Positions 18,192-61,882 of a stretch of 64,000 bases of DNA are shown one piece after another. This DNA comes from a virus (Duplodnaviria; Caudoviricetes), in the IMG/VR virus record IMGVR_UViG_3300035670_000192, positions 1,194 through 65,193 of that record; one strand, 5' to 3'. A program made the position numbers and the translations under genes. The notes under the pieces are model-generated. The model was not told the origin of the DNA, did not search any database, and saw nothing but the letters and a program-made list of their open reading frames with translations. Numbering within the stretch: position 1 is the first letter of the stretch; the number at the start of each line of letters is the position of its first letter.

Positions 18192-18194
18192 CAA

Positions 18195-18527: not shown

Positions 18528-18528
18528 G

Positions 18529-20193: not shown

Positions 20194-20211
20194 AAGGTAA
20201 AGGTAAATTAA

Positions 20212-20772: not shown

Positions 20773-20784
20773 AGGATTCTGTAG

Positions 20785-21765: not shown

Positions 21766-21785
21766 TTTTTAGGAAATTAAATTAA

Positions 21786-22781: not shown

Positions 22782-22794
22782 TTGAGATTAAATT

Positions 22795-25103: not shown

Positions 25104-25104
25104 G

Positions 25105-25112
25105 AATAAATA
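25105..25112 (+). promoter_or_regulatory. Late promoter variant AATAAATA
   Basis: Intergenic, upstream of the IPT/TIG gene series. Confidence 0.55.
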
Positions 25113-25134
25113 CCCTAAAAGTCGAGGGATGTAA

Positions 25135-26562: not shown

Positions 26563-28085
26563 TGGCAGGTAAATTAGAAGGAACTGCGATTCAAGCAGGC
26601 ACAATATCGACAACACAATTGGCTCCTGCGCTGAGCACTGCAGTGTCATCAGGCGGTGGAATTAAGATAACAGGAATAAGTTATCCTGGTGCAAACACAG
26701 CTGCAAATACCAACGGTGGTCAAACAATTACATTAACTGGTACTGGTTTTAAACCAGGCGTTATCGTTTCAATTAATAACGCAACAGTTCCTGCTACAAG
26801 TTTTATAAATGCAAATAGCATTAGTTTCACAACACCTGCAGGTTTAGCGGCAAGAACGTTTCAAGTATATGTAACAAATACTGATGGTTCTTCGACAATT
26901 CTATTCCCAGGAATTGATATATCAAATGAACCTGTTTGGGTAACTAATTCCACACTTCCTGGATTCGTAACGCCAGGACCAATTTCTATAGATTTTAGTG
27001 CAACAGGTGATGGTGAGATCACTTATGCTTTGGCATCAGGTAGTACACTACCATCAGGGTTGACGATTGCTTCAAATGGTCGCTTTAGTGGCACAAAATC
27101 TGCAAATGCAGAATCTGACACAACCTATACTTTTGATGTAGTTGCAACTGACGCTAACAATCAGTCAACGACAAAAACATTTTCATTATCTGAAATTGTG
27201 ACTTTATCGGGAACTGGCGGTACTGTATCAAACATCACAGGTTATCGCGTTCACACCTTCACAAGTTCAGACACATTTACGATCAATGCTGGTCCAAGAA
27301 CTGTTGAGTATCTGATTGTTGCTGGTGGTGGCGGTGGTGGTGCTGGTGGTGGCGGTGGTGCAGGTGGCGTTTTAAGTGGCAATCTCACTATGAATTCTGG
27401 TGTGACTTATACAGTCACTGTCGGTGCTGGCGGTGTCGCATCATATGCTGGTAGTGCTTTTGCAGCAAGCAGCGCTGCAGTAAATGGTGCAAATTCTTCA
27501 GTAAGTGGATCAGACATTACATCAATTATTGCAGTTGGTGGTGGTGCTGGTGCAACCACAAATACTGTTTTTGGTGGCGGTTCAATCGCTGTCAATGGCA
27601 CATCATACAAGGGCGCAAATGGTGGCTCTGGTGGCGGTGGCGGTGGCAACTCAGAAGGACCAAGCATCTTCGGTAATGTTCCAGGTGGCGTTGCAGTTTA
27701 TCCAGGAAGTCCATTTATAAGTGGAACACGCCAAGGTTATAACGGTGGTGCTGGTGGTGGTTATGGTAATTCTCCAGCCGCTGGTGGTGGCGGTGCTGGT
27801 GCAGCAGGTGAACCTGCACTTTCATTTAGACCAGGAGTTGGAGGCGGTGGTACTGCTTCTCCAATTAGCGGAAGTTCAGTCACTTATGGTGGCGGCGGTG
27901 GTGGTGGATCTTATGGTCATGGTGGCTCTGCTGGTGGTTCTGGTGGTGGTGGAGCAGGCAGAGGATTTACTCAAGGTGGTTCAGCAACTTCTGGTAGCAC
28001 AAACACTGGCGGTGGCGGCGGTGGAGGAGGAGTCAGCGGTGGCTCTGGTGGATCGGGAATCATCATCTTAAGATACGCGGTGTAA
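26562..28085 (+). CDS. IPT/TIG + Ig-like + Gly-rich fibre protein
   Basis: Paralog of 25135. Confidence 0.75.
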   Translation: MAGKLEGTAIQAGTISTTQLAPALSTAVSSGGGIKITGISYPGANTAANTNGGQTITLTGTGFKPGVIVSINNATVPATSFINANSISFTTPAGLAARTFQVYVTNTDGSSTILFPGIDISNEPVWVTNSTLPGFVTPGPISIDFSATGDGEITYALASGSTLPSGLTIASNGRFSGTKSANAESDTTYTFDVVATDANNQSTTKTFSLSEIVTLSGTGGTVSNITGYRVHTFTSSDTFTINAGPRTVEYLIVAGGGGGGAGGGGGAGGVLSGNLTMNSGVTYTVTVGAGGVASYAGSAFAASSAAVNGANSSVSGSDITSIIAVGGGAGATTNTVFGGGSIAVNGTSYKGANGGSGGGGGGNSEGPSIFGNVPGGVAVYPGSPFISGTRQGYNGGAGGGYGNSPAAGGGGAGAAGEPALSFRPGVGGGGTASPISGSSVTYGGGGGGGSYGHGGSAGGSGGGGAGRGFTQGGSATSGSTNTGGGGGGGGVSGGSGGSGIIILRYAV

Positions 28086-48243: not shown

Positions 48244-51200
48244 ATGAGCGATAAAATCGCAATATTTTATCATATCTACCAAGCAAATCATTGGGTAGAG
48301 ATGTTCGAGAAACAGATTATCGCACTACAGCAGTCAGGTGTGTATGATTCTGCAAGCCATATACATTTCGGTGTAAATGGTAACGAACCTCTACCTTATG
48401 ATTTGATCAAAGTGAACTCTGTAAAAAGAAATAATAAAACAGATTCAGAAGCAGATACTCTTTTCGATCTTTATAAATTTGCTGTAAAAAATCCCGACTA
48501 TAAAATTCTGTATCTTCATACAAAGGGAACTGGTTGGGGTAATGAAAAGATTAAAAATGATAAGCATTACGAAGTTTTAAAAAATGTTTTGTATAAAAAC
48601 CTTGACCTTTGGTGGTCATATATGGGATACTTCAACATCACTCGTTGGAGAGATTCTGTAAAACTTTTGAATGAGTATGATTGCGTTGGTACTGAATGGA
48701 CAAAAGAAGCAAGCATTTTAAATCATAAAATTAGCCATCCGCATTATTCTGGAAACTTTTGGTGGGCTAATGCGAGTTACATTGCGCAATTAGATCCAGG
48801 TTTTTTATATGAGAATACTGAATGGAAACGCCATCAGCCAGAGTTTTGGATTGGTACGAAAGATCCTAATTTCTATAACTATTATTATAGCGGTAATAAT
48901 TTATACCTCGAACCGTTGCAGCCAGAAAGTTACCAAGATACTCCCATAATAAAAACAAACGTCATCATGAACAAATCAAACAGAGAAAAAGTTATTGATT
49001 CCATATTAAGCGCATGGAAACCACATAATGCATTTGCACAATGGTTAGTTCATGAAATTAAACCGTCAACAATTGTTGATCTTGGTGTTGATTATGGCTA
49101 TTCAACGTTTACTTTCGCAATGCCAGAAATTGGAACGGTATATGGTATCGATAATTTCAAATCTGACCCATTAACTGGTAATCATCCTGATCAGAAAGAA
49201 AAAACTTTTTCAACACTAAAGCAACTTGAGTTGAATAATGTTGAGATTATAGAGGGCGACTTCTCTGAAGTTGCAAAAACTTGGAATAAGAAGATCGATA
49301 TCCTTCATATTGACGGCTATCATACTTATGAATCCGTAAAAGAAAATTATGAGGTTTGGTCTAAATTTTTGTCTGATGATGGCATCATACTACTACATAA
49401 CACTAAAGTTACGCAATCAGACTTCGGAGTCAAAAAACTATTCAGTGAGATAGAATTACCAAAATTAAATCTAATTGATGGGTATGGATTGGGTGTGATT
49501 AGTAAAAACGAAAAGACCATAAACATTATCAGAGAAATATTCATGGGCAATATACAGTCAGAAAAACCAAAAGGTGCTAAAATTTGTATGATTTCGATGT
49601 TCAAGAATGAAGCATCGAATATTCGTAAAATGTTAGATTCAGTCGCACCTTATATCAAGTATTGGGTTCTGCAAGATAACGGCTCAACTGATGGTACTGT
49701 TGATATTGTGAAGCAATGGGCTGCTGAAACGAATATTCCTGGTCATCTCTATAAAGTAGAAGAAGGTTGGGTAAATTTTGGTTGGAATCGCGATCATCTA
49801 CTACAGACTGCCTTGAAGTCCGATCACGGTTGTGATTGGATCATGAAAATGGATTGCGATGAAACTTTAGAAGTTGCAGAAGATTTTGATTGGTCGATAT
49901 TTGAAGATACCAGCCCACAAAGTTTTCATGTTACATCTATTGCCCCAGGATTAATCTATTACAGAGCATGGATTTGGAACGCTAAACTTCCTTGGAAGTT
50001 CAATCACGACCCAGCGCACGAAACCATCTCTCTCGAAATGGATGGGATTGGAGAAAATTTCGTAAGAACAAGTCTGCCAAAAACATTTAAGATGATTGGT
50101 GGAGTTTCACATGGCGAAAGTTATTCAGTCCCTACCAAATATGTAACTGACGCACTCAAACTTGAAGAGAAGTTAATTCGCGAAGGTACGATGTTGACCG
50201 ATTTGTATCATTTCTGGTATATCGGTAAGTCATACGAAGATTGCTATCGTGGTAATTTTTTCCCACTCAAGGAAGTGCATCAGGAAGAATATGCTCGTCG
50301 CTGCATATTCTATTTTAACAGTGTTGTGAATCACACTCATAAATTTAATGAAACACAAACGGCAAGTCATGTTGATGAAATGGCTTATTATGCAGTGTGC
50401 GCTATCGGTAACGCATATCGTTTCTTGAAGGATTACGAGAAAGCGATTTGGCATTATCAGAAAGCAGAATCATTCGCAGAAATTCGCAATGACCATCACA
50501 TTTATCTTGCGGAAGTATACGCAGAACTCGGTGAATGGGAAAAGATGTACAATCATACATCATTCATAATGCGCCCAGAAAGAACGAATCCCTTTCCAAC
50601 GTATCATTTCCTAATCAATACCAACATGTACAATGATACTGGCGGTTATCCAAAGCATTTGCATAAGATTGCAATGGAGAATCAAAATAGAGAAAAGCCA
50701 GTGTTTAAAATAAACTCAAAAGCGTCGCAAAAGAAAAGAATTTTCGTCGTTGATGATTTCTATGCTGATCCATACGCTGTTCGCGACTTTGCATTAAAAG
50801 CGAATTTTGAAGGCGATATTAATTGGTACAAGGGTAAGCGTACAAAGGAAAAGTATTTAACGGAAGAAATGAAAAAAGCAATTGAAGATATTATGGGAAT
50901 TAAGATCAAAAAGTGGGACCATGGCATGAATGGTAGTTTGCAATATTGCACACCTGAAGATGCTTTGGTATATCATTATGATTCTCAAACTTGGGCAGGT
51001 GCTGTATATCTAACACCTAATGCTCCATATGACACTGGAACGTGTTTGTATGCGCATAAAGGCACAGGAATCAGATCTGCGGATGAACCAGGCGCTGATG
51101 CTTGCTTCAGTGGTGGTTTTTATGATTCTACGAAGTTTGATTTAGTTGACAATATCGGAAATGTTTTCAATCGACTAGCAATTTGGGATGCTCGTTGTTT

Positions 51201-51273
51201 CCATGCAGCCAACAAATATTTTGGGCAAACAGTTAACGATTCTCGTTTGTTCCATTTATTCTTCTTTGATTAA
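48244..51273 (+). CDS. Multidomain protein: GT-like + methyltransferase + GT2 + TPR + 2OG-Fe(II) oxygenase-like
   Basis: LYLHTKG/HYSGNFWW; DLGVDYG/LHIDGYHTYE; DNGSTDGT/MDCDE; TPR-like helices; VVDDFY…HYDS…FH. Confidence 0.8.
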   Translation: MSDKIAIFYHIYQANHWVEMFEKQIIALQQSGVYDSASHIHFGVNGNEPLPYDLIKVNSVKRNNKTDSEADTLFDLYKFAVKNPDYKILYLHTKGTGWGNEKIKNDKHYEVLKNVLYKNLDLWWSYMGYFNITRWRDSVKLLNEYDCVGTEWTKEASILNHKISHPHYSGNFWWANASYIAQLDPGFLYENTEWKRHQPEFWIGTKDPNFYNYYYSGNNLYLEPLQPESYQDTPIIKTNVIMNKSNREKVIDSILSAWKPHNAFAQWLVHEIKPSTIVDLGVDYGYSTFTFAMPEIGTVYGIDNFKSDPLTGNHPDQKEKTFSTLKQLELNNVEIIEGDFSEVAKTWNKKIDILHIDGYHTYESVKENYEVWSKFLSDDGIILLHNTKVTQSDFGVKKLFSEIELPKLNLIDGYGLGVISKNEKTINIIREIFMGNIQSEKPKGAKICMISMFKNEASNIRKMLDSVAPYIKYWVLQDNGSTDGTVDIVKQWAAETNIPGHLYKVEEGWVNFGWNRDHLLQTALKSDHGCDWIMKMDCDETLEVAEDFDWSIFEDTSPQSFHVTSIAPGLIYYRAWIWNAKLPWKFNHDPAHETISLEMDGIGENFVRTSLPKTFKMIGGVSHGESYSVPTKYVTDALKLEEKLIREGTMLTDLYHFWYIGKSYEDCYRGNFFPLKEVHQEEYARRCIFYFNSVVNHTHKFNETQTASHVDEMAYYAVCAIGNAYRFLKDYEKAIWHYQKAESFAEIRNDHHIYLAEVYAELGEWEKMYNHTSFIMRPERTNPFPTYHFLINTNMYNDTGGYPKHLHKIAMENQNREKPVFKINSKASQKKRIFVVDDFYADPYAVRDFALKANFEGDINWYKGKRTKEKYLTEEMKKAIEDIMGIKIKKWDHGMNGSLQYCTPEDALVYHYDSQTWAGAVYLTPNAPYDTGTCLYAHKGTGIRSADEPGADACFSGGFYDSTKFDLVDNIGNVFNRLAIWDARCFHAANKYFGQTVNDSRLFHLFFFD

Positions 51274-51287
51274 AGATATATACTGCC

Positions 51288-51932
51288 ATGGCATACTTAA
51301 ACGCTAACATCCCGCCCATAGAATGCTATGTGCGGACCAATTTTCTTCAGAACAGAACAGAGTTCGATGAAGCAAAAGACACATATCTTCCAGTTCTTAT
51401 ATTCGGAGTTGCGTCTGTTCCGCACCGTGTTCCGTTATTTCATTTTATCATGGAAGATGAGGGGCTTTGGTTCCGCATGCCGATCCACGCCTTCTGTCAT
51501 AAAACTCCTGCGCCGCAAGAGGAACTATACAATCTAGTTCTGTGGGATTCTTTCAGTTCATATATTGGCGTCACACAGTTTGACTTTTTGATTAACAAAC
51601 GAATCAAGTATATTGATCGCAATAAGAAGTGGAACGAAGGCACATATATGTTCACACTTGATTGGTCTCAGGAGGATAAAAATGTTCTTGACACAGGGTT
51701 TAGTGAAGTACCTGGACAGCATAAGTGCGGTCATCTTATTAAATTGGACAACGGAAATTTCGCAATACAGCCTAACAATCGTGTGCGTGCTTTTGAACCC
51801 TCATTTGTCACTAAACCTGGTCAAAACGTTATTGAGCGTAAACTAGGCACAAATATGTGGTCTGTTGAGAACACCAGTAAGTGGGTTCTTTCTGACGACG
51901 ATCGTTATGATTATGAGGTAACGCAAAAATGA
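51288..51932 (+). CDS. Conserved phage hypothetical protein
   Basis: MAYLNANIP…LWDSFS…YMFTLDW…HKCGH…GNFAIQPNNR. Confidence 0.7.
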   Translation: MAYLNANIPPIECYVRTNFLQNRTEFDEAKDTYLPVLIFGVASVPHRVPLFHFIMEDEGLWFRMPIHAFCHKTPAPQEELYNLVLWDSFSSYIGVTQFDFLINKRIKYIDRNKKWNEGTYMFTLDWSQEDKNVLDTGFSEVPGQHKCGHLIKLDNGNFAIQPNNRVRAFEPSFVTKPGQNVIERKLGTNMWSVENTSKWVLSDDDRYDYEVTQK

Positions 51933-52501
51933 TGTCAATGAACGTGAAAGATTACTTGAAAGTTTATGACAATTTTTTAGATGCAAAGACTTGTAAAAAT
52001 GTTGTAAAGAAAATAAAGAACATCGATTGGCATATGCATTCATTTTACACAGCAAAAGATGATGCGTATGTGAGTTATGATAAAGAACTTTCTATTGCAT
52101 ATTCTTCAATACCAGAAGCTGCCGAAATTAATAAGAAAGTTTGGTTTGCAATTGAACAATATGTCTTAAAAGATCACTCATACATGGCTGAGTGGTTTGG
52201 TGGTTGGAATGGATACAGTCAAATTCGTTTTAATCGATACAAAAAGAATACACAAATGAAGTTGCATTGCGATCATATTCACAGCATGTTTGATGGAAAT
52301 AGAAAAGGTGTTCCTGTCTTGTCAATCTTAGGTGCACTTAATGACGACTATGAAGGCGGTGAATTGGTATTTTGGGAATCTGAACGAATTGAACTTAAAG
52401 CTGGTCAACTTATGATCTTCCCTAGCAACTTTATGTACCCACATCGTGTAGATGAAGTTACGAAAGGAACTAGATATAGTTTTGTTTCTTGGACTTGGTA
52501 A
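51929..52501 (+). CDS. 2OG-Fe(II) oxygenase (prolyl-hydroxylase-like)
   Basis: HCD, LNDDYEGGE, FPSNFMYPH and GTRYS motifs. Confidence 0.92.
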   Translation: MMSMNVKDYLKVYDNFLDAKTCKNVVKKIKNIDWHMHSFYTAKDDAYVSYDKELSIAYSSIPEAAEINKKVWFAIEQYVLKDHSYMAEWFGGWNGYSQIRFNRYKKNTQMKLHCDHIHSMFDGNRKGVPVLSILGALNDDYEGGELVFWESERIELKAGQLMIFPSNFMYPHRVDEVTKGTRYSFVSWTW

Positions 52502-52511
52502 CGGAGAAAAA

Positions 52512-52706
52512 ATGATTTCGGAAGAATATAAAAAAGTAAATTGTAACAATTGCGAGTCAGAGTATTTCTTAAAATACTTTTTCGAGAAAGTTACAAACGA
52601 GCCTCAATACTGCCCTTTCTGCGGCGAAGAAATAGAAGAAGATTATGAGGACGACGAAGAAGACGAAGAAGAAGATAATTTCGAAGACGACGATCGATAT
52701 AATTAA
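52512..52706 (+). CDS. Zn-ribbon protein with an acidic tail
   Basis: CNNC…CPFCG. Confidence 0.75.
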   Translation: MISEEYKKVNCNNCESEYFLKYFFEKVTNEPQYCPFCGEEIEEDYEDDEEDEEEDNFEDDDRYN

Positions 52707-52711
52707 AAGAT

Positions 52712-52748
52712 AAATACTCATTAGTGTTGTGCTAATGAGTATTTTTTT
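52712..52748 (+). terminator. Hairpin + T7 (terminator or RBS-occluding stem) overlapping late promoter GATAAATA (52709-52716)
   Basis: AAATACTCATTAG-tgttgtg-CTAATGAGTATTT, immediately before the ATG at 52749. Confidence 0.7.
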
Positions 52749-53201
52749 ATGCTTGACTATGAAAACCCTTGGCTCTATCAAGGCAAACCTTTTACTTCCG
52801 AAGATATTCAAGATAACTATGGCTTTGTGTATTGCTTGACAGACTCCGTCAACAATCGTAAGTACATTGGTCGCAAATATTTCTGGTCTGTACGAACAGT
52901 AAAGAAAGTCAAGGGACGACGTAAGAAAAACAAAAGCGAAAGTGATTGGAAGGATTACTATGGTTCTTCCAAGACAATTCTTGAGATTATAGAACAACAC
53001 GGCAAAGAAAGATTTAAAAGAGAGATTATTTCTTTGCATAAAACCAAAGGTGAGGTAAACTATCAAGAAGTAAAAACGCAGTTCATAAAAGAAGTCCTCG
53101 AGGCTGTGAATGAAAACAACGAGCGTGCATACTACAATGAAAATATAGCCAATCGCTATTTCTACCGCAATCGTAAAGAGGGGAGTCAAAATGACAGTTA
53201 A
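52749..53201 (+). CDS. GIY-YIG family endonuclease (Seg-like, catalytic domain only)
   Basis: YGFVY…RKYIGRK, YYGSS, E and YYNENI motifs. Confidence 0.85.
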   Translation: MLDYENPWLYQGKPFTSEDIQDNYGFVYCLTDSVNNRKYIGRKYFWSVRTVKKVKGRRKKNKSESDWKDYYGSSKTILEIIEQHGKERFKREIISLHKTKGEVNYQEVKTQFIKEVLEAVNENNERAYYNENIANRYFYRNRKEGSQNDS

Positions 53202-53547
53202 CGATTTAGTAGACGAGAAGAAGGACTTTGATGGTGTTTATTTCTGTAAGACGAAAGAAGGCGACAATGATGGATGGTCGCTGACGTTTCTAAGTTTAAA
53301 TGAAAAGAAAGATCGTAAGTTTGAAGAACATGAAGCGGGTATCAAGTATCAAGTCATGTTTTATGAAAATAATAAAGTTGAATTGTTCGAAGCCATTCTG
53401 GGCGACCCAAATACCTATCTGAAAAATCTTATAGACTCGAATCAAGAGGGTCTCATTATCAAGAAGTGTAAGCGATCGAAAAAGATCATTTCTCAGATCC
53501 TCGGAAAGGAGGGTTTTCGTAAGTTTAGGGAAATTTTCGAAAGTTGA
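53191..53547 (+). CDS. Hypothetical protein
   Basis: ORF with an RBS. Confidence 0.6.
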   Translation: MTVNDLVDEKKDFDGVYFCKTKEGDNDGWSLTFLSLNEKKDRKFEEHEAGIKYQVMFYENNKVELFEAILGDPNTYLKNLIDSNQEGLIIKKCKRSKKIISQILGKEGFRKFREIFES

Positions 53548-53594
53548 CGTAAGTTGTTGATTTTACAACAGTTTCGTAAGTTATTGATTTTACA
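53548..53594 (-). promoter_or_regulatory. Tandem 20-bp repeat containing two IHF consensus sites
   Basis: CGTAAGTT(G/A)TTGATTTTACA twice, period 27; reverse complement AATCAA-NAAC-TTA matches WATCAANNNNTTR. Confidence 0.75.
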
Positions 53595-53607
53595 GGGTTT
53601 TTTTCTA

Positions 53608-53636
53608 TTTACATCTGACGCGAAATAGTGTATTAT
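53608..53636 (+). promoter_or_regulatory. Sigma70-type early promoter
   Basis: TTTACA-N17-TATTAT. Confidence 0.75.
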
Positions 53637-53669
53637 AGATGATGTGATAGGCTAAAACCAGAAGGAAAG

Positions 53670-53867
53670 ATGAAGCAATATTACGAAGTTTACGAAAACG
53701 CGATCATCACTTTTAACGGTAAGAAAACGCGAGGAAACAAGCGTATACTTAAGACCAAGAGCCGACGCGAGGCGCTAAAATTATACAGCGCGAGTACGAA
53801 AACGCGCTGGGTGGAGGAAATCACCGACTACGGTAGCGGTGAAAGCGTGGATATTATCACTAGTTGA
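53670..53867 (+). CDS. Small early hypothetical protein
   Basis: AAGGA RBS; flanked by promoters. Confidence 0.65.
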   Translation: MKQYYEVYENAIITFNGKKTRGNKRILKTKSRREALKLYSASTKTRWVEEITDYGSGESVDIITS

Positions 53868-53875
53868 GGTTGACG

Positions 53876-53935
53876 TAAGTTATTGAAAGGCAAGGGGATT
53901 TTCCCCTTGTCCTTTCTTACGTTTTACTGTATAAT
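53876..53935 (+). promoter_or_regulatory. IHF-like box + sigma70 promoter
   Basis: TAAGTTATTGAAA at 53876; TTGTCC(53907)-N17-TATAAT(53930). Confidence 0.7.
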
Positions 53936-53967
53936 TGTATTATGTTAGTAGATAAGGTGAAATTCTA

Positions 53968-54837
53968 ATGCCACGTGGCGTACCAAAAGCAGGTTTTCGT
54001 CGTACTAAAAAGCAGCGTGCTGGTATCAATCACGCGCCGCAGTTTGTACTCCCAATTTCAACTGAAACGATCCCGCAGATCGAAGCGAAACTGAAAGATC
54101 GCTTCGAGGCGCTCGAGGTCATGTCCGAGGCTACAGGTCGCGGCATTAATCGGTCGCTCATCGTCTCTGGTCCCGCAGGGCTGGGTAAGTCGTACACCGT
54201 CGAATCCAAACTGGCGGCGCTCGAGCGTAAGGGTCATCACGTCGTATACATTAAAGGATACGTGCGTCCGTTGTCGCTTTACAAGTTGCTGTACGAAGCA
54301 CGATTCACGAACAGCGTGCTCGTGTTCGACGACTCTGATTCTATTTTCCACGACGACGTCAGCATGAACTTGTTGAAGACTGCGTGCGATTCTACGGAGC
54401 GTCGTGTTCTTCACTGGTTGTCACGTTCGCTCGAACGTGAAGAAGATGAGGACGGCGAGAGCATTCCTGAGAAGTTCGAGTTTGAAGGTTCGGTCATTTT
54501 CATCACGAACTATGACTTTGATGCTCTGATTCGGTCAGGCAACAAGTTGGCTCCGCACTTCGAGGCTCTCGTTTCTCGTTCGCATTATCTCGATCTTGCG
54601 ATGAAGACCAAGATGGATTATCTTGTTCGCATCAAGCAAGTTGTTCGTGGCGGGATGTTGCGAGATCGTGGCATGGCTGACATAGATACTATTCAGATCA
54701 TGCAATTTATCGAAAACAACGTTGACCGTCTGCGCGAGTTGTCACTGCGTATGGTAGTGAAACTTGCAGGCTTGTATAAGATGGATCGCGTCAACTGGCA
54801 GAAACTTGCGAAGCAGACCTGCTTCCGTGGAGTATAA
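53968..54837 (+). CDS. AAA+ family ATPase
   Basis: GPAGLGKS Walker A, VLVFDDSD Walker B, IFITN and ALVSRS. Confidence 0.85.
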   Translation: MPRGVPKAGFRRTKKQRAGINHAPQFVLPISTETIPQIEAKLKDRFEALEVMSEATGRGINRSLIVSGPAGLGKSYTVESKLAALERKGHHVVYIKGYVRPLSLYKLLYEARFTNSVLVFDDSDSIFHDDVSMNLLKTACDSTERRVLHWLSRSLEREEDEDGESIPEKFEFEGSVIFITNYDFDALIRSGNKLAPHFEALVSRSHYLDLAMKTKMDYLVRIKQVVRGGMLRDRGMADIDTIQIMQFIENNVDRLRELSLRMVVKLAGLYKMDRVNWQKLAKQTCFRGV

Positions 54838-54841
54838 TTGT

Positions 54842-55075
54842 ATGGCTAAGAAAGTTACATTATGGGCTGTTCGTGGTCCCAAAGGTTTGATCAAGAGTAT
54901 AAAACCAGAAACCACTAAAGATTGTTTGATTCAATGGAACGTTGCTGCTGTTGCAGAGATGTATGGTTGTTGGGGTGAATTGTGGGTTCGTGGTGTGGGT
55001 GGTTATAAAAAGGCATGGAAATATCTAGAAAAAAATGGTTATAAGGCTGTAAAAGTCACAATCATAGAAGTTTGA
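54842..55075 (+). CDS. Hypothetical protein
   Basis: ORF starting MAKKVTLW. Confidence 0.6.
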   Translation: MAKKVTLWAVRGPKGLIKSIKPETTKDCLIQWNVAAVAEMYGCWGELWVRGVGGYKKAWKYLEKNGYKAVKVTIIEV

Positions 55076-55106
55076 TTTTACAATCTAAAACAGGTAGAGT
55101 ATTCCT

Positions 55107-56207
55107 ATGGCTAAATTTATTCCGAAAGTTGTTCCTGAACCCTCGTGGGAAAAACAGGAAGGACCCTGTACGCAATTCGATCTCGTCTTTGCGTTTCAGT
55201 GGTACAATCACAATAAAGAGTCGCGTGATGCGCGCAAGTATCTGATTGAGTATCTTGTAAAGAACAACGAGATCAGTCCATTACAGAAGCAAGCAGCGGA
55301 TTATCTAAACCTGTCCTGGAATATCGTGGACGGTTGGTTGGCGCGTTGCTTGAGTCGTGGTGCATTGGTGCCCGATACTGTATTTGCAAACTTTAAGGAG
55401 CGCATGCGTGTTTTCAGAAGTCGCCTGGACGAAATCGTCACAGAAAAGAATCTTGGAACAGTCGTCCCCGACAACAGCAACGTCGTCTCAATTCAAGAGC
55501 GAGTTCAAGGTAAGGTCGACTTCTTCATCATGGAACTTGAAGCCAAGTTCGATAACGTTTGGCATGAACAAAGCGGAGAAGAATTCGTACCATACACCTG
55601 GATGGTCGAGAATGAAGTGAAGCCGATGCATGCTTCTAAGATCGCGGAATATTTCAAGCAGCGTGCCGCTGACTGGATCGCGATCATCGAGTCGAAAGAT
55701 GAGTATGTGAAAGAATCATATCCACGCCCTCGTAAAGAAATGATCGAGGCTGCGAAATTCTTCGGTCTTGTTGCGACCGACGCTGAGAAACTCTCTTCGA
55801 ACAAGAGTGCGGCTCGTAAGCCACGCAAGAAGAAGCCAGTCTCCTTCGACAAGAAGGTTAAGAATCTCAAGTACAAGAAGGAAGACATTGATAACAAGTT
55901 GGTGTCCATCGATCCTGTCAAGATCGTTGGGGCTGAAAAGTTATGGGTCTATAACGTTAAGACGCGCAAACTGGGCGTCTACGTCGCCTCTGATGCCGCT
56001 GGGCTTGAGGTGAAAGGATCCGCGATTCAAAATTATAAATATAGTGAGTCTATCTGTAAGACTCTCCGAAAGCCGAAAGATGTTCTCTCGCGGGTTCTCG
56101 AAGGTGGTAAAGTTGTGTTGCGTAAAGTGATGGGCGAGATTAATTCGAAACCCCAAGAACTGAACGGTCGAATCAATAAGGATACAATTCTACTGCGAGT
56201 GGAGTAA
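55107..56207 (+). CDS. Conserved T4-like phage hypothetical protein
   Basis: LVSIDP…LWVYNVKTRKL…KTLRKP…NGRIN C-terminal domain. Confidence 0.7.
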   Translation: MAKFIPKVVPEPSWEKQEGPCTQFDLVFAFQWYNHNKESRDARKYLIEYLVKNNEISPLQKQAADYLNLSWNIVDGWLARCLSRGALVPDTVFANFKERMRVFRSRLDEIVTEKNLGTVVPDNSNVVSIQERVQGKVDFFIMELEAKFDNVWHEQSGEEFVPYTWMVENEVKPMHASKIAEYFKQRAADWIAIIESKDEYVKESYPRPRKEMIEAAKFFGLVATDAEKLSSNKSAARKPRKKKPVSFDKKVKNLKYKKEDIDNKLVSIDPVKIVGAEKLWVYNVKTRKLGVYVASDAAGLEVKGSAIQNYKYSESICKTLRKPKDVLSRVLEGGKVVLRKVMGEINSKPQELNGRINKDTILLRVE

Positions 56208-56208
56208 C

Positions 56209-56742
56209 ATGATTGCAATTACCAGCAATTTTTTAAACAGATCCGACTCAGCGATGATTCGGAAATATTCTAAATTTGTCCTCAATCGTCTGGTGCGTCC
56301 GTGCGTTCAGAAGAAAGCGAAGATCAATGTAAAAGTTCTTGGCGAACAAGAAATTAAAGATGCTGCTGAAATTCTCGAACTGAAAAAGTATAAAGCATGG
56401 TGCACCTATGATGGTCTTGACGACGAGGGCAACAAGAAGTTCACTGTTGTTCTTAATTACAAACGCATTAATAAATTGGGCAAGAAGCCAATCACAAGAT
56501 TGAAGAATGTTCTCATTGATCTTGGGCATGAATTGACTCATGTAAAACAATATCTCAACAATGAGTTGTTTGATTACAAGAGCGGCGATGTTCGATATAA
56601 GGGATTGTTCTTTGATGCCTCGCATTACATGGAAGAAGAAAAGTATTTCGAAAGTCCATGGGAAGTTGAAGCGTATGGTCGTGAGTTGGGTCTTTATAGA
56701 ATCTTTTGCAATAAATTAAAAGAGGAGCGTTTGAGTAAGTAA
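56209..56742 (+). CDS. Putative zincin metallopeptidase
   Basis: HELTHVKQY…PWEVEAY. Confidence 0.7.
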   Translation: MIAITSNFLNRSDSAMIRKYSKFVLNRLVRPCVQKKAKINVKVLGEQEIKDAAEILELKKYKAWCTYDGLDDEGNKKFTVVLNYKRINKLGKKPITRLKNVLIDLGHELTHVKQYLNNELFDYKSGDVRYKGLFFDASHYMEEEKYFESPWEVEAYGRELGLYRIFCNKLKEERLSK

Positions 56743-56744
56743 TC

Positions 56745-56936
56745 ATGAATAAGAAGAAACAGAATGAGTTTCGCGAAAAGCAATACAGTCGAAACAGTGA
56801 AGGATTGAAACAGCGTCGTTTGAAGAATGAGTCTCGGTGGAAGTTCAATCCGAATGCAGAGTACGAAGATGAAGCCGATGACTTGAACGACGAAGAACTA
56901 GATGACTATGATCTAGATTCTTATGATAGACGATAA
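56745..56936 (+). CDS. Small basic/acidic hypothetical protein
   Basis: ORF. Confidence 0.55.
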   Translation: MNKKKQNEFREKQYSRNSEGLKQRRLKNESRWKFNPNAEYEDEADDLNDEELDDYDLDSYDRR

Positions 56937-56954
56937 AAATTTATTATAATTTAG

Positions 56955-56983
56955 TTGACCTGTAAGTGTAACTATGTTATAAT
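56955..56983 (+). promoter_or_regulatory. Sigma70-type promoter
   Basis: TTGACC-N17-TATAAT with TG extended -10. Confidence 0.8.
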
Positions 56984-57073
56984 GGATGTACAAGGTATGA
57001 AAACCTTGTAATGGTACTCCTTCGTATCCCGAAGGATTTTGGTTAATTTAATCTAATGTTAAAGGTGGTAATT

Positions 57074-58675
57074 ATGTCAAATGTAGTTCATGGGGTCATC
57101 CCCAATATCCCTCTTCCCGTAACAAAGACGCTGACGATCTTTGAATATAATAACGGGATCAATGACGGCACATACAACATCGACCCTGTCGGTCAACGTC
57201 TCAGTACAGACAATTCTCAGGAAACAAAATCCCAAGCAATTGTCGTATCCATCATAGATGGTTCAGACGTTGGTGAAATTTCTTTCCGTTGTTACAAGTG
57301 TACAAATAAAGAAACTGGTCGCGAAGAAGAAGTTTACGAAATCATCGACGGTAGTCACCGTTCTCGAGCAATCAACAAATTCATCTCGGGTAAGATTCGT
57401 ATTCCTTCCGACTGTAAAGTTGTTGTCAAATTGGCTTCTGGTGAGAAGGTTTCAATCGCTGGTTTGCGATATAGAGATCTTCCGCAAGAGTTAAAAGACT
57501 TCTTCAACTTCTATGTGGTGCGTCTTTGCATTTATCCAAACGCAACGGCAAAGCAAGCAGCAAAACTCTTTCAGAATAAGAACAACACGACTTCGGTCAA
57601 TCACCAAGAGATGTTGAATTCTAACTCTGAGAATCTTGTTGCTATCGCTGTTCGTGAAATTGCGCGCAAATTGTACAATCATACGCCGCAGTACAATATG
57701 CACGAACTCTTTCAAGAGCGAATCATCACGAAGGGTGTCTCTGCTGGTGAGAAGAAACCGAAGTATCTTGCTTATCCAAACAAGCGTCTTTGCTATGATG
57801 AGTTTGTTGCAATTTTGTTCATCTATGCTATTGAGAACGGATTGACGAAAGCATCATACGAAGATCTTGAAAATCTTTACACCGTATATGGTGATGAGGA
57901 TAATGGTAAGTTCTTAGACGATAAGAAATTCTTGTCAAGCACTGTTGATCGAGTTAATGGTTGTTTGGACTTCTTGGTCAAACTCGGTGAGGCATACATT
58001 TGCGATATATCAACAAAGGGTATGACTCTGGATCGCGTTGTAATGGCTGCTCGATATTACTGGTGGTTGAAGTCGCAAGGAAAGGATTTTAAATTGTCCA
58101 ATCCATCTGTCTTTGTTCAAGTTTTGACTGGAGCACTGACTGCTCTTGTTGGTAAACCTGGTAGCAATTCTGTACCTGCTGCTGACAAGTGGGTTAACAC
58201 TCTGGTTGATGCAAAGAAGTTCTCGCTTCCTGAAGGTGAACCGATTCCTGTTTCATCTAAGATGCGCGAATGGATGAGCGGTTACAATGCTGATGGTGAA
58301 CGTGTTCGACAAACGGTCTTGTGGCTTGAAGAAGCAATGCAGGACTATTGTGCAGAGCATAATTTGGATAACGTTGGTCTTACGTTCAAGGACACCGTTC
58401 GTGGATTCTCTTTCGCAGTTCGCGAGGCTGCTCTGGCGCGTCAAGGATTCCGTTGCTGGGTTACTGGTGAACCGCTGTCAATGGATAACGCTGATGCGGG
58501 TCACATCGTTGCGCATGCTGAAGGTGGTCCAACTAAACTGGAAAACTGTGCCATGATTCGCAAGGATCTGAATAAGGCAATGGGCTCTACAAACGCACGT
58601 GAATGGCGTCGTATGTGGCGTCAAGCCAATGGTTTAGATGTGAACGTTCCTCCTGCTGGTGAGGAGACCAAGTAA
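57074..58675 (+). CDS. DUF262 (ParB/GmrS-like) + HNH protein, GmrSD-like
   Basis: GQR, EIIDGSHR, LFQNKN; C-terminal RCWVTG…DAGHIVAHAEGGPT…N…N. Confidence 0.75.
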   Translation: MSNVVHGVIPNIPLPVTKTLTIFEYNNGINDGTYNIDPVGQRLSTDNSQETKSQAIVVSIIDGSDVGEISFRCYKCTNKETGREEEVYEIIDGSHRSRAINKFISGKIRIPSDCKVVVKLASGEKVSIAGLRYRDLPQELKDFFNFYVVRLCIYPNATAKQAAKLFQNKNNTTSVNHQEMLNSNSENLVAIAVREIARKLYNHTPQYNMHELFQERIITKGVSAGEKKPKYLAYPNKRLCYDEFVAILFIYAIENGLTKASYEDLENLYTVYGDEDNGKFLDDKKFLSSTVDRVNGCLDFLVKLGEAYICDISTKGMTLDRVVMAARYYWWLKSQGKDFKLSNPSVFVQVLTGALTALVGKPGSNSVPAADKWVNTLVDAKKFSLPEGEPIPVSSKMREWMSGYNADGERVRQTVLWLEEAMQDYCAEHNLDNVGLTFKDTVRGFSFAVREAALARQGFRCWVTGEPLSMDNADAGHIVAHAEGGPTKLENCAMIRKDLNKAMGSTNAREWRRMWRQANGLDVNVPPAGEETK

Positions 58676-58911
58676 TGAAACAGTTGAAAGTTGCGATTAA
58701 GAACTTTGAAGAGTCGATGAAGAATGTAGAAGTACCACCGTGCTTCGATTCTAAACTCGAATATTTGTTCTGGCTTGAAGGTGAGAAAGAAGCACCAACA
58801 CAACCACCAAGATTCATCTGTCGTGATTGTGATGTTTCTTATCAACGAAAGATGATAAAGCAAGGTCGATGTTTCAACAAAGAGATCGACTTGAGGAAGA
58901 TCACTAAATGA
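58675..58911 (+). CDS. Small Cys-containing hypothetical protein
   Basis: PPCF…CRDC…GRC. Confidence 0.6.
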   Translation: MKQLKVAIKNFEESMKNVEVPPCFDSKLEYLFWLEGEKEAPTQPPRFICRDCDVSYQRKMIKQGRCFNKEIDLRKITK

Positions 58912-59081
58912 AAATGAAATATTTCATACAAATGCAATACACTAACGGATTTCGTTACACTGTTGTTGAGGCTGATTCGGAAGAGGAAGCCAAGAAGTTA
59001 GCAAGAAGTGAAATTAAAAAGAAAGACGTTATTGATTGTGTTGTTATTGAGGCTGAAAAGTTACAGCAAAATAATTCATAA
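58908..59081 (+). CDS. 57-aa hypothetical protein (not in the ORF track)
   Basis: MKMKYFIQ…VVEADSEEEAKK; GAGG RBS; ATGA overlap. Confidence 0.6.
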   Translation: MKMKYFIQMQYTNGFRYTVVEADSEEEAKKLARSEIKKKDVIDCVVIEAEKLQQNNS

Positions 59082-59238
59082 AAGTGATTGATTTTCAGGA
59101 CATGCTTACTATATAATTTGCTTATGGTGTTAAGTATGAATTCCTGGAGTGTTTCGCTACTCCCTCGCAATGATGAGGTAGGACAAAGTCCCAAGGTGCC
59201 CTTGAATTCCCCTCCCGCACCGAAAAACGCGAACCTTT

Positions 59239-59298
59239 TAAGTCATTGATTTTATTAGTATTTTTAACGTTTACGAAACAGCCTTATTCTGCTATAAT
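59239..59298 (+). promoter_or_regulatory. IHF box + sigma70 promoter of the tRNA cluster
   Basis: TAAGTCATTGATT at 59239; TTTACG(59270)-N17-TATAAT(59293). Confidence 0.75.
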
Positions 59299-59366
59299 AG
59301 TCTTATAAGGTTGATGAAGGAAGTCCCTGCGACTCTCCTGTTCTTTAAAAGATGAATTTTATGATT

Positions 59367-59442
59367 GCCGCTGTAGCACAACTGGTAGTGCACCTGATTT
59401 GTAATCAGGGGGTTGTAGGTTCAAGTCCTATCGGCGGCACCA
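59367..59442 (+). tRNA. tRNA-Thr(TGT)
   Basis: Cloverleaf; cctga-ttTGTaa-tcagg; CCA end. Confidence 0.95.
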
Positions 59443-59448
59443 ATTTAT

Positions 59449-59523
59449 GTTCCCTTCATCTAGCGGTAAGGATATCGCCCTTTCACGGCGGGTACACGAG
59501 TTCGAATCTCGTAGGGAACGCCA
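59449..59523 (+). tRNA. tRNA-Glu(TTC)
   Basis: cgcc-ctTTCac-ggcg; GTTCGAAT; CCA. Confidence 0.95.
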
Positions 59524-59543
59524 TATTTTTGTTATGAGATTTT

Positions 59544-59617
59544 GGGACCATAGCTGGAAGGTCTAGCATAGGACTTTTAATCCTTCGACGAGGGTTCGAT
59601 TCCCTCTGGTCCTACCA
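59544..59617 (+). tRNA. tRNA-Lys(TTT)
   Basis: agga-ctTTTaa-tcct; CCA. Confidence 0.9.
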
Positions 59618-59629
59618 TTTTGTGATTGT

Positions 59630-59705
59630 TCCGCAGTAGTTCAATTGGTAGAATCCTGGTCTCCAAAACCAGTTGTTGGCGGTTCGAGTCCGTCCTGCGG
59701 ACCCA
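59630..59705 (+). tRNA. tRNA-Trp(CCA)
   Basis: ctggt-ctCCAaa-accag; CCA. Confidence 0.92.
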
Positions 59706-59710
59706 GTTTT

Positions 59711-59785
59711 TGGCGAGTAGATCAGAGGTAGATCAGCTGACTGTTAATCAGCCTGTCGCAGGTTCGATCCCTGCCTCGCCAGCCA
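59711..59785 (+). tRNA. tRNA-Asn(GTT)
   Basis: gctga-ctGTTaa-tcagc; CCA. Confidence 0.95.
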
Positions 59786-59789
59786 TCTT

Positions 59790-59955
59790 GGTGCTTGCAG
59801 GGAATTCACTGTGAGTCATCCGTTGGTGCAAAGACTTTTCCGTTTGAATAGCACCAACGATATATGAGGTTGAACGGAATGCATTCTATGTTGCGTGGGG
59901 GCATAGATAAGAATAATCCAGTAGCGTGAGAATTCGCGAACGATAGCCCACGCCA
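59790..59955 (+). ncRNA. Candidate structured RNA: hairpin plus two pseudoknots, ending in CCA
   Basis: Pairings 59821-29/59851-59, 59838-47/59870-79, 59885-92/59900-07 and 59893-99/59947-53. Confidence 0.55.
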
Positions 59956-59960
59956 TTTTT

Positions 59961-60035
59961 GGGGAACTAGTGCTAACGGGAACACGCTGCGTTTGCATCG
60001 CAGAGTTTGGGGTTCGATTCCCCAGTTCTCCACCA
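59961..60035 (+). tRNA. tRNA-Ala(TGC)
   Basis: ctgcg-ttTGCat-cgcag; G3:U70; CCA. Confidence 0.95.
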
Positions 60036-60039
60036 AAAC

Positions 60040-60250
60040 GTTCCGACTCATAATCGGATAGTGTGCGTCCGCACGATGAGAAGCGAGATCATGACTCGCA
60101 GGACCTTACCCTTGGGTTGAAAAGGGCGCTGGCAATGCGACAATCCTCTTTGGTCGTGAAGTGGATGGAAGGACTGCGTGATGGCATTAGTACCCGTAAG
60201 GTAGAGACTAGTGCTTGATGGTCTAAGTTACCACCGCAAAGAGGAAGCAA
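60040..60250 (+). ncRNA. Candidate multi-stem structured RNA (possibly manA-motif-like)
   Basis: At least six helices and a potential pseudoknot (CTCAT loop with ATGAG); GC-rich, noncoding, between tRNAs. Confidence 0.6.
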
Positions 60251-60259
60251 CTAATTAAC

Positions 60260-60334
60260 GCTGGATGTGGCGAGCAGTAATGTGTCGCCTTCATCGGATG
60301 CCCAGAACGAGCAAACCCAGTTGTCTCATCCAGC
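60260..60334 (+). ncRNA. Candidate small structured RNA (possibly abiF-motif-like)
   Basis: Closing stem GCTGGATG/CATCCAGC with inner hairpin GGCGA…TCGCC. Confidence 0.45.
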
Positions 60335-60343
60335 ACTTATTAT

Positions 60344-60417
60344 TGAGGAGTCGTCTAACGGCAGGACAGCAGGTTTTGATCCTGCTTATCGTGGTTCGAA
60401 TCCATGCTCCTCAGCCA
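60344..60417 (+). tRNA. tRNA-Gln(TTG)
   Basis: gcagg-ttTTGat-cctgc; CCA. Confidence 0.95.
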
Positions 60418-60424
60418 AAATTAT

Positions 60425-60511
60425 GGACAGGTGGGAGAGCGGTTAAATCCAATTGACTGTAAATCAATCACCCAACGGGTTACGCTAGTTCGAATCTAGC
60501 CCTGTCCACCA
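60425..60511 (+). tRNA. tRNA-Tyr(GTA)
   Basis: attga-ctGTAaa-tcaat; long variable arm; CCA. Confidence 0.95.
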
Positions 60512-60515
60512 TTTT

Positions 60516-60590
60516 GTGACGGTGGCTGAAAAGTGAGGCGAGAGTCTGCAAAACTCTTCTATGCTGGTGCGAATCCAGTCCGTCACTCCA
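60516..60590 (+). tRNA. tRNA-Cys(GCA)
   Basis: agagt-ctGCAaa-actct; U73; atypical T-loop TGCGAAT. Confidence 0.9.
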
Positions 60591-60594
60591 TTTC

Positions 60595-60671
60595 GGGACA
60601 ATGGCACAGTTGGTTAGCGCACAGTCCTGATAAGACTGAGGTCGATGGTTCGAATCCATCTTGTCCCACCA
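60595..60671 (+). tRNA. tRNA-Ile(GAT)
   Basis: cagtc-ctGATaa-gactg; CCA. Confidence 0.95.
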
Positions 60672-60677
60672 GTTTAT

Positions 60678-60753
60678 GCACGGTTGGTCTGAGAGGTTAA
60701 GCGACACCTTTACACGGTGTATCATGTAGGTTCGAGTCCTACACCGTGCACCA
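60678..60753 (+). tRNA. tRNA-Val(TAC)
   Basis: acacc-ttTACac-ggtgt; CCA. Confidence 0.92.
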
Positions 60754-60841
60754 ACATTTAATATAATCTTAACGGAGATTAATCTTCTTGGGGATAAATA
60801 GGTTTGTGTTCGAACAATTAAATCCTCCAGGAGACCGACAA

Positions 60842-61486
60842 ATGAGACTACACGATCTTGCCGTAAGACTCGCTGCTGTTGAATCCAAGTTAGCCACACT
60901 AACTGGCACAGTTGCAAATACAGATATTATCGATGATGTTGCTGAATTCGATCAAAGACTTTCAGTAGTTGAAGTTCAAGTTGACCAATTGATTGCTCTT
61001 AAGACACAAGAACAAGTTGCTGTGCTTGTTGCTGCCCCAGCAGCCGCCGCAACCATCGCTGTTGAAGAAGTTGTTCTTCTCTCACCAAGTGCTGAAGATT
61101 CAGAAGCAGTTCTTGTTGTTGAAGATGTTCTTCATGCTCAACATGAAGCCGAGGCAATTGACAATCCAGAAGTTGCAGTTGTTGTCGCTGCTGCCGTTGC
61201 TGCAGTTGTTGCTGCTGATCCAGAAGTTGTGAAGGATCCAGAAGCAGTTGCTGTGCTCATCAAGGAAGCAGTTGCCGAAGCACCAGTTCCATCTGCTGAA
61301 GCAGTTGTTGCCACAGCAGAGGCTGTCGCTGCAGTTGTTGCTGCTGCTACAGGTGCCGAAGTTGCTCCAGAAGTTAAGGAAGAACTTGCAGTTGCAGTTG
61401 CTGCTCCTGCTGATCCAGTTCTTGATGGTCTTGAAGCACGTTTGGCAGTTGCGGAAGCAAAGGTCGATAGTCTATTGGGAAAATAA
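60842..61486 (+). CDS. Ala/Val/Glu-rich helical protein
   Basis: AGGAG RBS before ATG 60842; GATAAATA upstream; three RLxxxE motifs. Confidence 0.75.
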   Translation: MRLHDLAVRLAAVESKLATLTGTVANTDIIDDVAEFDQRLSVVEVQVDQLIALKTQEQVAVLVAAPAAAATIAVEEVVLLSPSAEDSEAVLVVEDVLHAQHEAEAIDNPEVAVVVAAAVAAVVAADPEVVKDPEAVAVLIKEAVAEAPVPSAEAVVATAEAVAAVVAAATGAEVAPEVKEELAVAVAAPADPVLDGLEARLAVAEAKVDSLLGK

Positions 61487-61534
61487 TATCAGGTGTTCGA
61501 AGTTTGATTCGACGCCTGTTTTAATATATGATAG

Positions 61535-61563
61535 AGAGGGAGCCAAGTGCTCCCTCTTTTTTT
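61535..61563 (+). terminator. Rho-independent terminator
   Basis: AGAGGGAGC-caagt-GCTCCCTCT followed by a T run. Confidence 0.85.
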
Positions 61564-61640
61564 GCGGTCGTAGCACAATCGGATAGTGCAAGAGATTTCT
61601 AATCTCTAGGTTGGGGGTTCGAGTCCCTCCGATCGCGCCA
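61564..61640 (+). tRNA. tRNA-Arg(TCT)
   Basis: agaga-ttTCTaa-tctct; CCA. Confidence 0.93.
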
Positions 61641-61654
61641 GTTTGGAGTATCAT

Positions 61655-61882
61655 ATGAAAAAGTATATTCATGTCAATCAGCACGTCATTCGTGCAAATA
61701 AAAAGAACAATGAGAATAATCCTGTGCTTACCATTAAGGAAGGCAGGAAGAATACTTATTGTCATCGTGTAAAGATACATGGACCAAGTGAAGTTGTGTA
61801 TTCAGGAAATGACAAATTACTTCTTCCTTGTGGCGCAAGAGTTGCTGTAGTTACAGAAAGCGAAATTGAAATTATAGAATGA
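61655..61882 (+). CDS. Conserved phage hypothetical protein
   Basis: IHVNQHVIRAN…PVLTIK…CGARV pattern. Confidence 0.7.
   Translation: MKKYIHVNQHVIRANKKNNENNPVLTIKEGRKNTYCHRVKIHGPSEVVYSGNDKLLLPCGARVAVVTESEIEIIE

Follow-up and report, generated by a model that had tools for sequence, protein, structure and literature searches.

A family of double-pseudoknot RNAs in the tRNA arrays of uncultured aquatic T4-like phages

According to PMC13096335, the tRNA arrays of phages have come to be regarded as tools against host defences that attack tRNAs. Some of the RNAs encoded in such arrays are not tRNAs, and these remain unexplained, RNAC and RNAD of bacteriophage T4 for fifty years and GOLLD and ROOL more recently. 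PMC3014915 and PMC9697503 describe the roles of RNAC and RNAD as still unknown. GOLLD and ROOL are multi-pseudoknot RNAs of phages and prophages that often lie beside tRNA islands and whose function is likewise given as unknown in PMC5737381 and bioRxiv 10.1101/2024.12.08.627333; according to the latter, GOLLD often exceeds 800 nt. Here we describe an RNA element encoded at positions 59786–59955 of a 64,000-nt stretch of viral DNA, referred to below as the window, which spans positions 1,194 to 65,193 of the IMG/VR record IMGVR_UViG_3300035670_000192. The element belongs to a hitherto undescribed family of RNAs, structured and ~130–205 nt in length, in the tRNA arrays of uncultured aquatic T4-like phages. 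The family is new and its general kind is known, that of structured RNAs in phage tRNA arrays whose function is unknown.

The spacer holding the element encodes a real, conserved RNA of ~165 bases, consisting of a hairpin and two pseudoknots, and comparison with its relatives confirms this. A first-pass annotation of the window had proposed that a phage tRNA array encodes, on the + strand, a structured non-coding RNA that contains two pseudoknots. The proposal is borne out: all the stems listed between 59790 and 59955 are present where they had been placed, and covariation in relatives supports the structure. On the + strand, the element opens with hairpin H0 (59790–59820), which is of variable length in the family and has a conserved base (GGUG/UCAUC); in the window, 59790–93 pair with 59817–20 and 59794–59800 with 59809–15, for a fold of −12.2 kcal/mol. 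The first pseudoknot, PK1, follows. Its stem S1 has 9 bp, formed by CGTTGGTGC (59821–59829) and GCACCAACG (59851–59859), and its stem S2 joins TTCCGTTTGA (59838–59847), which lies within the S1 loop, to TTGAACGGAA (59870–59879) through 10 bp, eight of them Watson–Crick and two G·U. The strand order S1-5′, S2-5′, S1-3′, S2-3′ is that of a true H-type pseudoknot. PK1 loop 3 (59860–59869) carries UAUGAG at 59863–68.

The second pseudoknot, PK2, is likewise H-type. Stem S3 pairs TCTATG (59885–59890) with CATAGA (59902–59907), and the 7-bp stem S4 pairs GCGTGGG (59893–59899) with CCCACGC (59947–59953), the family consensus being GYGUGGG and CCCACRC. Loop 1 (YU, 59891–59892) places U59892 immediately 5′ of S4, and a GG junction (59900–01) comes after the S4 5′ strand. 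Loop 3 (59908–59946) has an A-rich start (UAAGAAUAA), an optional hairpin H5 (59925–59938) and a UAG at 59944–46 that is invariant, but was included in the search patterns. H5 is missing from short forms and, by eye, is retained with different sequences in loci L015 and L083. A single-stranded tail, C-A and then TTTTT (59954–59960), extends to the next tRNA gene. Two additional PK2 pairs in the first-pass annotation, TT with GG, would be G·U and were excluded from the counted structures.

The nested minimum-free-energy fold of the element is unremarkable (z −1.34, with 21 of 200 shuffles folding equally well), as expected of a nested prediction, to which pseudoknots are invisible. A pseudoknot-specific stem score for PK1, taken over the 75 nt preceding S3, was 45, set against a shuffle mean of 24.1, and was reached by none of 100 shuffles; results for L004 and L015 were similar. 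The first-pass annotation had tied its interpretation to homologues with covariation, and these were found, with compensatory changes in all four pseudoknot stems. Nineteen related loci were gathered through a neighbouring protein (55107–56207), and six of them contain, after tRNA-Asn, a spacer homologue of 72–98% identity. A pattern search of viral contigs enlarged the set to 18 distinct full-length sequences of what we term type A. In this alignment, 83.7% of cells pair, compared with 36–43% when the partners are slid by one to three columns, and of the 43 pairs, 21 show changes on both sides. None of 500 shuffles reached the observed value on four of five measures; on the fifth, which counts further pair types, 39 of 500 reached it. 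Stem by stem, pairing extends to 94% of cells in S1 (7/9 pairs compensatory), 83% in S2 (4/10, with a conserved core of 59838–44 and 59873–79), 95% in S3 (5/6) and 100% in S4 (1/7). RNAalifold, which is unable to model pseudoknots, independently picks S1 and S4. Only 52% of H0 cells pair in the alignment, where MAFFT misaligns the hairpin; when each prefix is folded separately, 16 of 17 type A prefixes give a hairpin with a closed base and that of L005 folds otherwise.

PK2 can be compared across all subtypes. Among 34 distinct copies from viral contigs, 99.1% of its cells pair; in S3 the figure is 98% and all six pairs change on both sides. G·U pairs are frequent, with GU in 15 of the 34 copies at one S3 pair, and would become C·A on the opposite strand; the + strand is therefore the folding strand.

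Because the search patterns fixed most of S4, independent tests of this stem were sought. Metagenomes were scanned with a pattern in which the first two bases of S4 were left free; this gave 89 stretches, 83 of them with a complementary S3, and these comprise 47 distinct PK2 domains with 23 distinct pairs of S3 strands. Position +2 of S4 is C in 38 of these domains and T in nine, and the corresponding pair is C:G in 38, U:A in seven and U:G in two; C:A never occurs. With a pattern confined to PK1, copies were found at L277, L082 and L093 in which S4 is replaced by GUAAC/GUUAC in an unchanged structural place, and at L273 and L274 the junction is GA rather than GG.

The family plan is thus a variable hairpin, a PK1 whose sequence is specific to the subfamily and a nearly invariant 3′ PK2, in which the 7-bp helix GYGUGGG/CCCACRC abuts a helix of 6–9 bp across a 2-nt junction. 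A looser pattern based on S4, combined with a filter for S3 pairing, showed the same PK2 downstream of 5′ parts that differ widely. This pattern (GTGGGGG N20-50 TAGCCCACRC) is unspecific, about one-third of the 126 viral-contig matches examined being genuine after the S3-pairing filter. Type B is represented by seven distinct sequences, mostly between tRNA-Asn and tRNA-Val; its hairpin and PK1 are unrelated to those of type A in sequence and identical in architecture, with 96.6% of cells paired and nine pairs changing on both sides. Type C is devoid of the hairpin, and a type D and single variants were also found. The DNA occurrences come from subsurface, freshwater, lake and marine metagenomes of many studies. 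Among 121 matches listed from species-representative prokaryote genomes, one copy is genuine, at L261, a 5.9-kb contig of a Bacteroidota metagenome-assembled genome with a phage-like tRNA array and two tandem elements. Such tandems, a type A copy followed directly by one of type C, were observed at L261 (4120–4400), L082 (~1170–1453), L093 and L277; in three of the four the first copy has the different S4 helix (GUAAC/GUUAC) and no free tail.

The UAUGAG of PK1 loop 3 is invariant in the type A alignment, though the search pattern demanded it; copies retrieved with other patterns have AUGAGG, AUGG or an unrelated sequence. Three interpretations of this loop were dropped. Reading frames beginning at UAUGAG have, on inspection, end points that differ between L002, L004 and the window. 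A Shine–Dalgarno-like GAGG is reduced to GAG in the copies compared. Pairing of the loop with the hairpin base is at odds with type C copies, which keep the loop without the hairpin.

The Rfam scan recommended at the first pass shows that no Rfam 15 family matches the element: nothing was found there at the gathering score in the 64-kb window, at E up to 10 in 58900–61700, or at E up to 1 at the element in six loci of other subtypes. ARAGORN called no tRNA in 59786–59960 and no tmRNA at the element, and the Rfam tRNA model gave no match in 59786–59960 even at E up to 10. The element has neither a cloverleaf with D, anticodon and T arms nor a 7-bp stem followed by N73 and CCA. When types A, B and C were compared by blastn with 50,697 cultured-phage records, matches were to tRNA-Asn or absent, and megablast of 50000–59300 gave no match. 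A covariance model of PK2, R1, scores 50–79 bits on all 39 known copies. Its best score on five Kyanoviridae genomes (Melnitz, DSL-LC03, DSL-LC02, HTVC008M and P-TIM68) was 14.9 bits, and this model of the PK2 domain alone found no match at E up to 1 in T4 69500–74500, the tRNA region that holds rnaC and rnaD. No description of the motif was found in the literature, the supplementary tables of PMC10690425 being a place where it may be listed; that paper catalogues 10,006 candidates for structured RNAs, drawn from IMG/VR and from RNA viruses.

The complete IMG/VR record is 65,193 bp in length, with an estimated completeness of 37%. A gp41-type helicase encoded in the window is 60–64% identical to helicases of Kyanoviridae phages, its relatives being those of Methylophilales phage Melnitz, Synechococcus and Prochlorococcus myophages and Pelagibacter phage HTVC008M, and baseplate wedge subunits and ribonucleotide reductase are the annotations of PHROGs families matched by other frames. 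On the strength of the helicase identity and the PHROGs matches, we assign the source to an uncultured aquatic T4-like (Kyanoviridae-like) myovirus.

Fourteen tRNA genes, identified by ARAGORN and Rfam, lie on the + strand between 59367 and 63730, and the element is on the strand of all 14. It occupies the 175-nt spacer between tRNA-Asn (GTT, 59711–59785, + strand) and tRNA-Ala (TGC, 59961–60035, + strand), which are also the usual upstream and downstream neighbours in the family. Among the 83 metagenome copies, the upstream tRNA is Asn in 59; downstream, a tRNA for Ala or Val follows in 56 (Ala 41, Val 15) and none in 22. Most tRNAs of the same arrays are separated by 1–15 nt. One copy without tRNA neighbours, on the − strand of L021 (7256–7754), begins 5 nt past the stop codon of a small gene and has a TTGACA-17-TATAAT promoter immediately 3′, then another gene. 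PHROGs and Pfam scans of eight and nine neighbouring frames, respectively, named no reverse transcriptase, toxin or tRNA enzyme.

A promoter-like site is present at 59270–59298, and promoter-like sites occur upstream of the element only. No terminator-like site was called at its 3′ end, where the GC-rich hairpin and U-tract of an intrinsic terminator were not found. Contigs from four metatranscriptome studies contain at least part of the element. One, of 157 nt and at a depth of 168, covers 59816–59950 together with a 22-nt portion of a hairpin variant and reaches neither tRNA, and a second run yielded a 159-nt contig of a short-form relative. In a third run, a contig begins in the 3′ part of tRNA-Asn and continues through the element and tRNA-Ala (59762–60041), and in a fourth, a contig extends from the tRNAs into the hairpin. 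In some runs, parts of the compared stretch had no contig cover. The sequence of the element or of a close relative is present in RNA libraries, in a form compatible with a precursor as well as with a discrete product. That the machinery of tRNA processing releases the RNA, as first suggested, is plausible.

Our best, albeit tentative, reading is that the element is a co-transcribed small RNA in which the invariant PK2 mimics a tRNA acceptor arm on its 5′ face. The RNA would be transcribed together with the tRNAs from the promoter-like site at 59270–59298 and excised by the nucleases that mature the flanking tRNAs. PK2 would then mimic the stack of acceptor and T arms and so engage enzymes or factors that read such a stack; candidate partners are RNase P, the 3′-end trimming and CCA-adding enzymes, or some other acceptor-binding factor of host or phage. 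The most concrete of these is RNase P, with a possible cut at U59892/G59893. PMC12710915 reports that a bacterial RNase P RNA cuts a pseudoknot substrate in loop 1, and loop 1 of PK2 ends in an invariant U directly before an invariant G. In the metagenome copies, U(−1) and G(+1), both at positions left free by the pattern, are present in 47 of 47, while among 504 tRNAs of the same loci T(−1) occurs in 359 and G(+1) in 370. PK1 and the hairpin would form a structural body, PK1 being read in this way because its fold is kept across subfamilies and its sequence is not.

A number of observations weigh against the acceptor-arm reading. The first-pass annotation had the element end in CCA like the neighbouring tRNAs; this holds in the window, where CCA at 59953–55 is followed by TTTTT, but not in the relatives, in which CCA is not conserved. 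The first C of the triplet (59953) is itself paired, forming the last pair of the 7-bp S4, and the adjacent pair of the stem covaries. The first tail base after S4 is C in 35 of 36 copies; the second is A, completing CCA, in 19 of 36 and 27 of 47 copies and otherwise T, mostly as CCT. CAA tails are found in 14 of the 47 distinct metagenome copies, and the sequence after the element is A/T-rich. In the same loci, N73-CCA is encoded by the tRNAs themselves in 462 of 471 calls (254/257 and 208/214; 98%), and C is the discriminator in only ten of 495 tRNAs ending in CCA. No T-loop or anticodon mimic was identified in the element, and mimicry of one particular phage tRNA acceptor stem was dropped when S4 gave a single loose match among 743 tRNAs. 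Cleavage of the pseudoknot substrate by the bacterial RNase P RNA depended on a 3′ RCCA motif (PMC12710915), and the element has no RCCA after its 7-bp stem.

Other points against the same reading concern setting, transcript and fold. The element is dispensable, since in the relative L008 tRNA-Asn and tRNA-Ala lie 5 nt apart, and copies at L021, L064, L109 and L133 have no tRNAs nearby. The RNA evidence consists of contigs, which cannot define RNA ends, strand or level and may break at tRNAs shared between strains; DNA is possible in RNA libraries, and there was no silent control stretch. Finally, in an automatic pseudoknot scan that allowed no mismatches and covered ten of 21 targets, shuffles did as well as the real sequence in 82 of 100 cases for L067 and 87 of 100 for L131; the aligned count was used instead. 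Considering the invariance of U(−1) and G(+1) together with the tail data, we take PK2 to be acceptor-like on its 5′ side only: it resembles an acceptor arm in its 5′ face and in its helical stack (7 bp and 6–9 bp) and not at the 3′ terminus.

An extended form of this proposal would make the element the first tRNA-like structure of a DNA phage, a pseudoknotted acceptor-arm mimic excised from the tRNA precursor by tRNA-processing enzymes, completed by the CCA-adding enzyme, perhaps charged, and acting in trans. We regard this as distinctly doubtful. Were it true, the RNA could, as a decoy, sequester a host defence enzyme that targets the acceptor ends of tRNAs, or it could bind some other factor that reads acceptors, and such action in trans would protect translation during infection.

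The main rival to the acceptor-arm reading is that the element is a cis-acting module for processing or stability of the polycistronic tRNA transcript and has no role in trans. The pseudoknots would provide an entry site for a nuclease or a roadblock to an exonuclease, partitioning the array or capping the 3′ end of the upstream transcript. In keeping with this, the element is always inside arrays or directly behind a gene (as at L021), the sequence behind it is rich in A and T, two family members can stand in tandem and the array has two other conserved structured spacers, described below. Against it, most tRNAs in the same arrays manage with separations of merely 1–15 nt, and L008 does without the element altogether. 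Moreover, a simple roadblock would require neither the near-invariant loop and junction bases (U−1, GG, AAGA and UAG) nor a helix whose sequence hardly varies across subfamilies in which PK1 is unrelated. We consider a purely cis-acting role rather unlikely, if credible.

That the element is a self-cleaving ribozyme of a new class, cutting itself out of the tRNA precursor, seems to us very unlikely. Conserved junction nucleotides in a pseudoknotted fold are a typical feature of small ribozymes, and by inspection the strand order of PK2 recalls P1 and P2 of the hepatitis delta virus (HDV) ribozyme, with the optional hairpin in the position of P4. However, only 2 nt (GG) are available where an HDV-like fold needs P3 and L3, no conserved C was seen by inspection before the S4 3′ strand, and the Rfam 15 scans, at E up to 10 in the window and up to 1 in the six other loci, identified no ribozyme family.

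The T run that follows the S4 3′ strand, CCCACGCCATTTTT in the window and CCCACGCCTTTTT in L021, L005 and L025, raises the matter of an attenuator responsive to a ligand or protein, in which PK2 and the U-tract would end transcription or permit read-through to the downstream tRNAs. H-type pseudoknots with an embedded hairpin do occur among riboswitches. The U-tract is, however, absent from the 14 CAA tails and from type B copies, which read CCAAATTAG or CCATATTTGG; the end of the element was not called as terminator-like, no alternative pairing was found, no riboswitch family matches, and what lies downstream is tRNAs and not a regulated gene. An attenuator is most improbable. A mimic of type III antitoxins (ToxI/CptI-like) that neutralises a host abortive-infection endoribonuclease, an idea raised at the first pass on a general resemblance, such antitoxins being pseudoknotted and phage mimics of them possible, is scarcely credible, and membership of the antitoxin family itself fails, in that Tandem Repeats Finder detected no tandem direct repeats in 59000–60800 (0 rows at a minimum score of 30), no ToxN-like protein or other toxin gene was seen among the neighbouring frames scanned, Rfam gave no match and the unit of ~165 nt is far above the 34–36 nt of antitoxin repeats.

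The array contains further structured spacers. A second conserved structured RNA is encoded at 59125–59250, just upstream of the tRNA array and preceded by a promoter-like site at 59088–59117; it matches no Rfam family, and of the 23 pairs that RNAalifold gives it across eight loci, seven show changes on both sides. Between tRNA-Ala and tRNA-Gln, a spacer of 308 nt (60036–60343) is likewise conserved among relatives and without an Rfam match, RNAalifold assigning 22 pairs, two of them compensatory, to its 3′ part (~60264–60338). The stretch 60087–60194 has the greatest RNA-contig depth of the compared region in run X15. Just upstream of the array, a 539-aa frame (57056–58675) shows weak matches to a GmrSD N-terminal (DUF262-like) domain and an HNH endonuclease and may encode a mobile or anti-restriction nuclease. 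Within another phage tRNA array, L047 511–601 matches the tmRNA model weakly (28.2 bits, the gathering score being 47) and may be an odd tRNA-like gene. Three paralogous frames (18529–20193, 20785–21765 and 25135–26562) match phrog_2295, a PHROG of unknown function, and are situated in 18001–28000, a stretch with blocks of raised G+C content (0.47–0.48, compared with ~0.40).

In function, the nearest analogues of the element are RNAC and RNAD of T4 (the species 1 and 2 RNAs), which are also small RNAs other than tRNAs, encoded on the tRNA strand of a T4-type tRNA cluster. They are 139 and 119 nt long, and unlike the element they sit at the end of their cluster. By eye, RNAC has a T arm resembling that of a tRNA (GGTTCGAATCC), and the last bases of RNAD are CACCA. 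We know of no double pseudoknot in either. In structure, the nearest analogues are the tRNA-like structures of plant RNA viruses, of the turnip yellow mosaic virus and tobacco mosaic virus type, in which a 3′ H-type pseudoknot forms an acceptor-like stack with pseudoknots upstream. The corresponding 3′-terminal pseudoknot is present in the element as S3/S4, and the likeness is one of fold only. The viral structures are the ends of RNA genomes, terminate in -CC(A) and can be aminoacylated, whereas the element is a gene of a DNA phage in a tRNA operon, with a tail of C followed by A or T; in 59786–59960 it has no match, at E up to 10, to the Rfam models of the plant-virus structures.

The remaining systems share individual traits with the element. 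Transfer-messenger RNA (tmRNA) similarly combines a tRNA-like end with a string of pseudoknots, but the element has no T arm, takes its acceptor-like helix from an internal segment and not from the 5′ end, and has no conserved tag frame. Type III antitoxins (ToxI and CptI) are pseudoknotted small RNAs of phage–host conflict, organised as tandem repeats beside an endoribonuclease toxin gene. ROOL, like GOLLD, is large, and the two form multimeric cages; the element, at ~165 nt, matches neither family. Overall, the element belongs to none of T4 RNAC and RNAD, GOLLD and ROOL, or the plant-virus tRNA-like structures. Beside these systems, it represents a strongly constrained family, common in freshwater and other aquatic viromes, that would add a new RNA family to the databases; its sharply defined invariant core, and a size suited to structure probing, crystallography and enzyme assays, make the function of RNAs in tRNA arrays directly testable.

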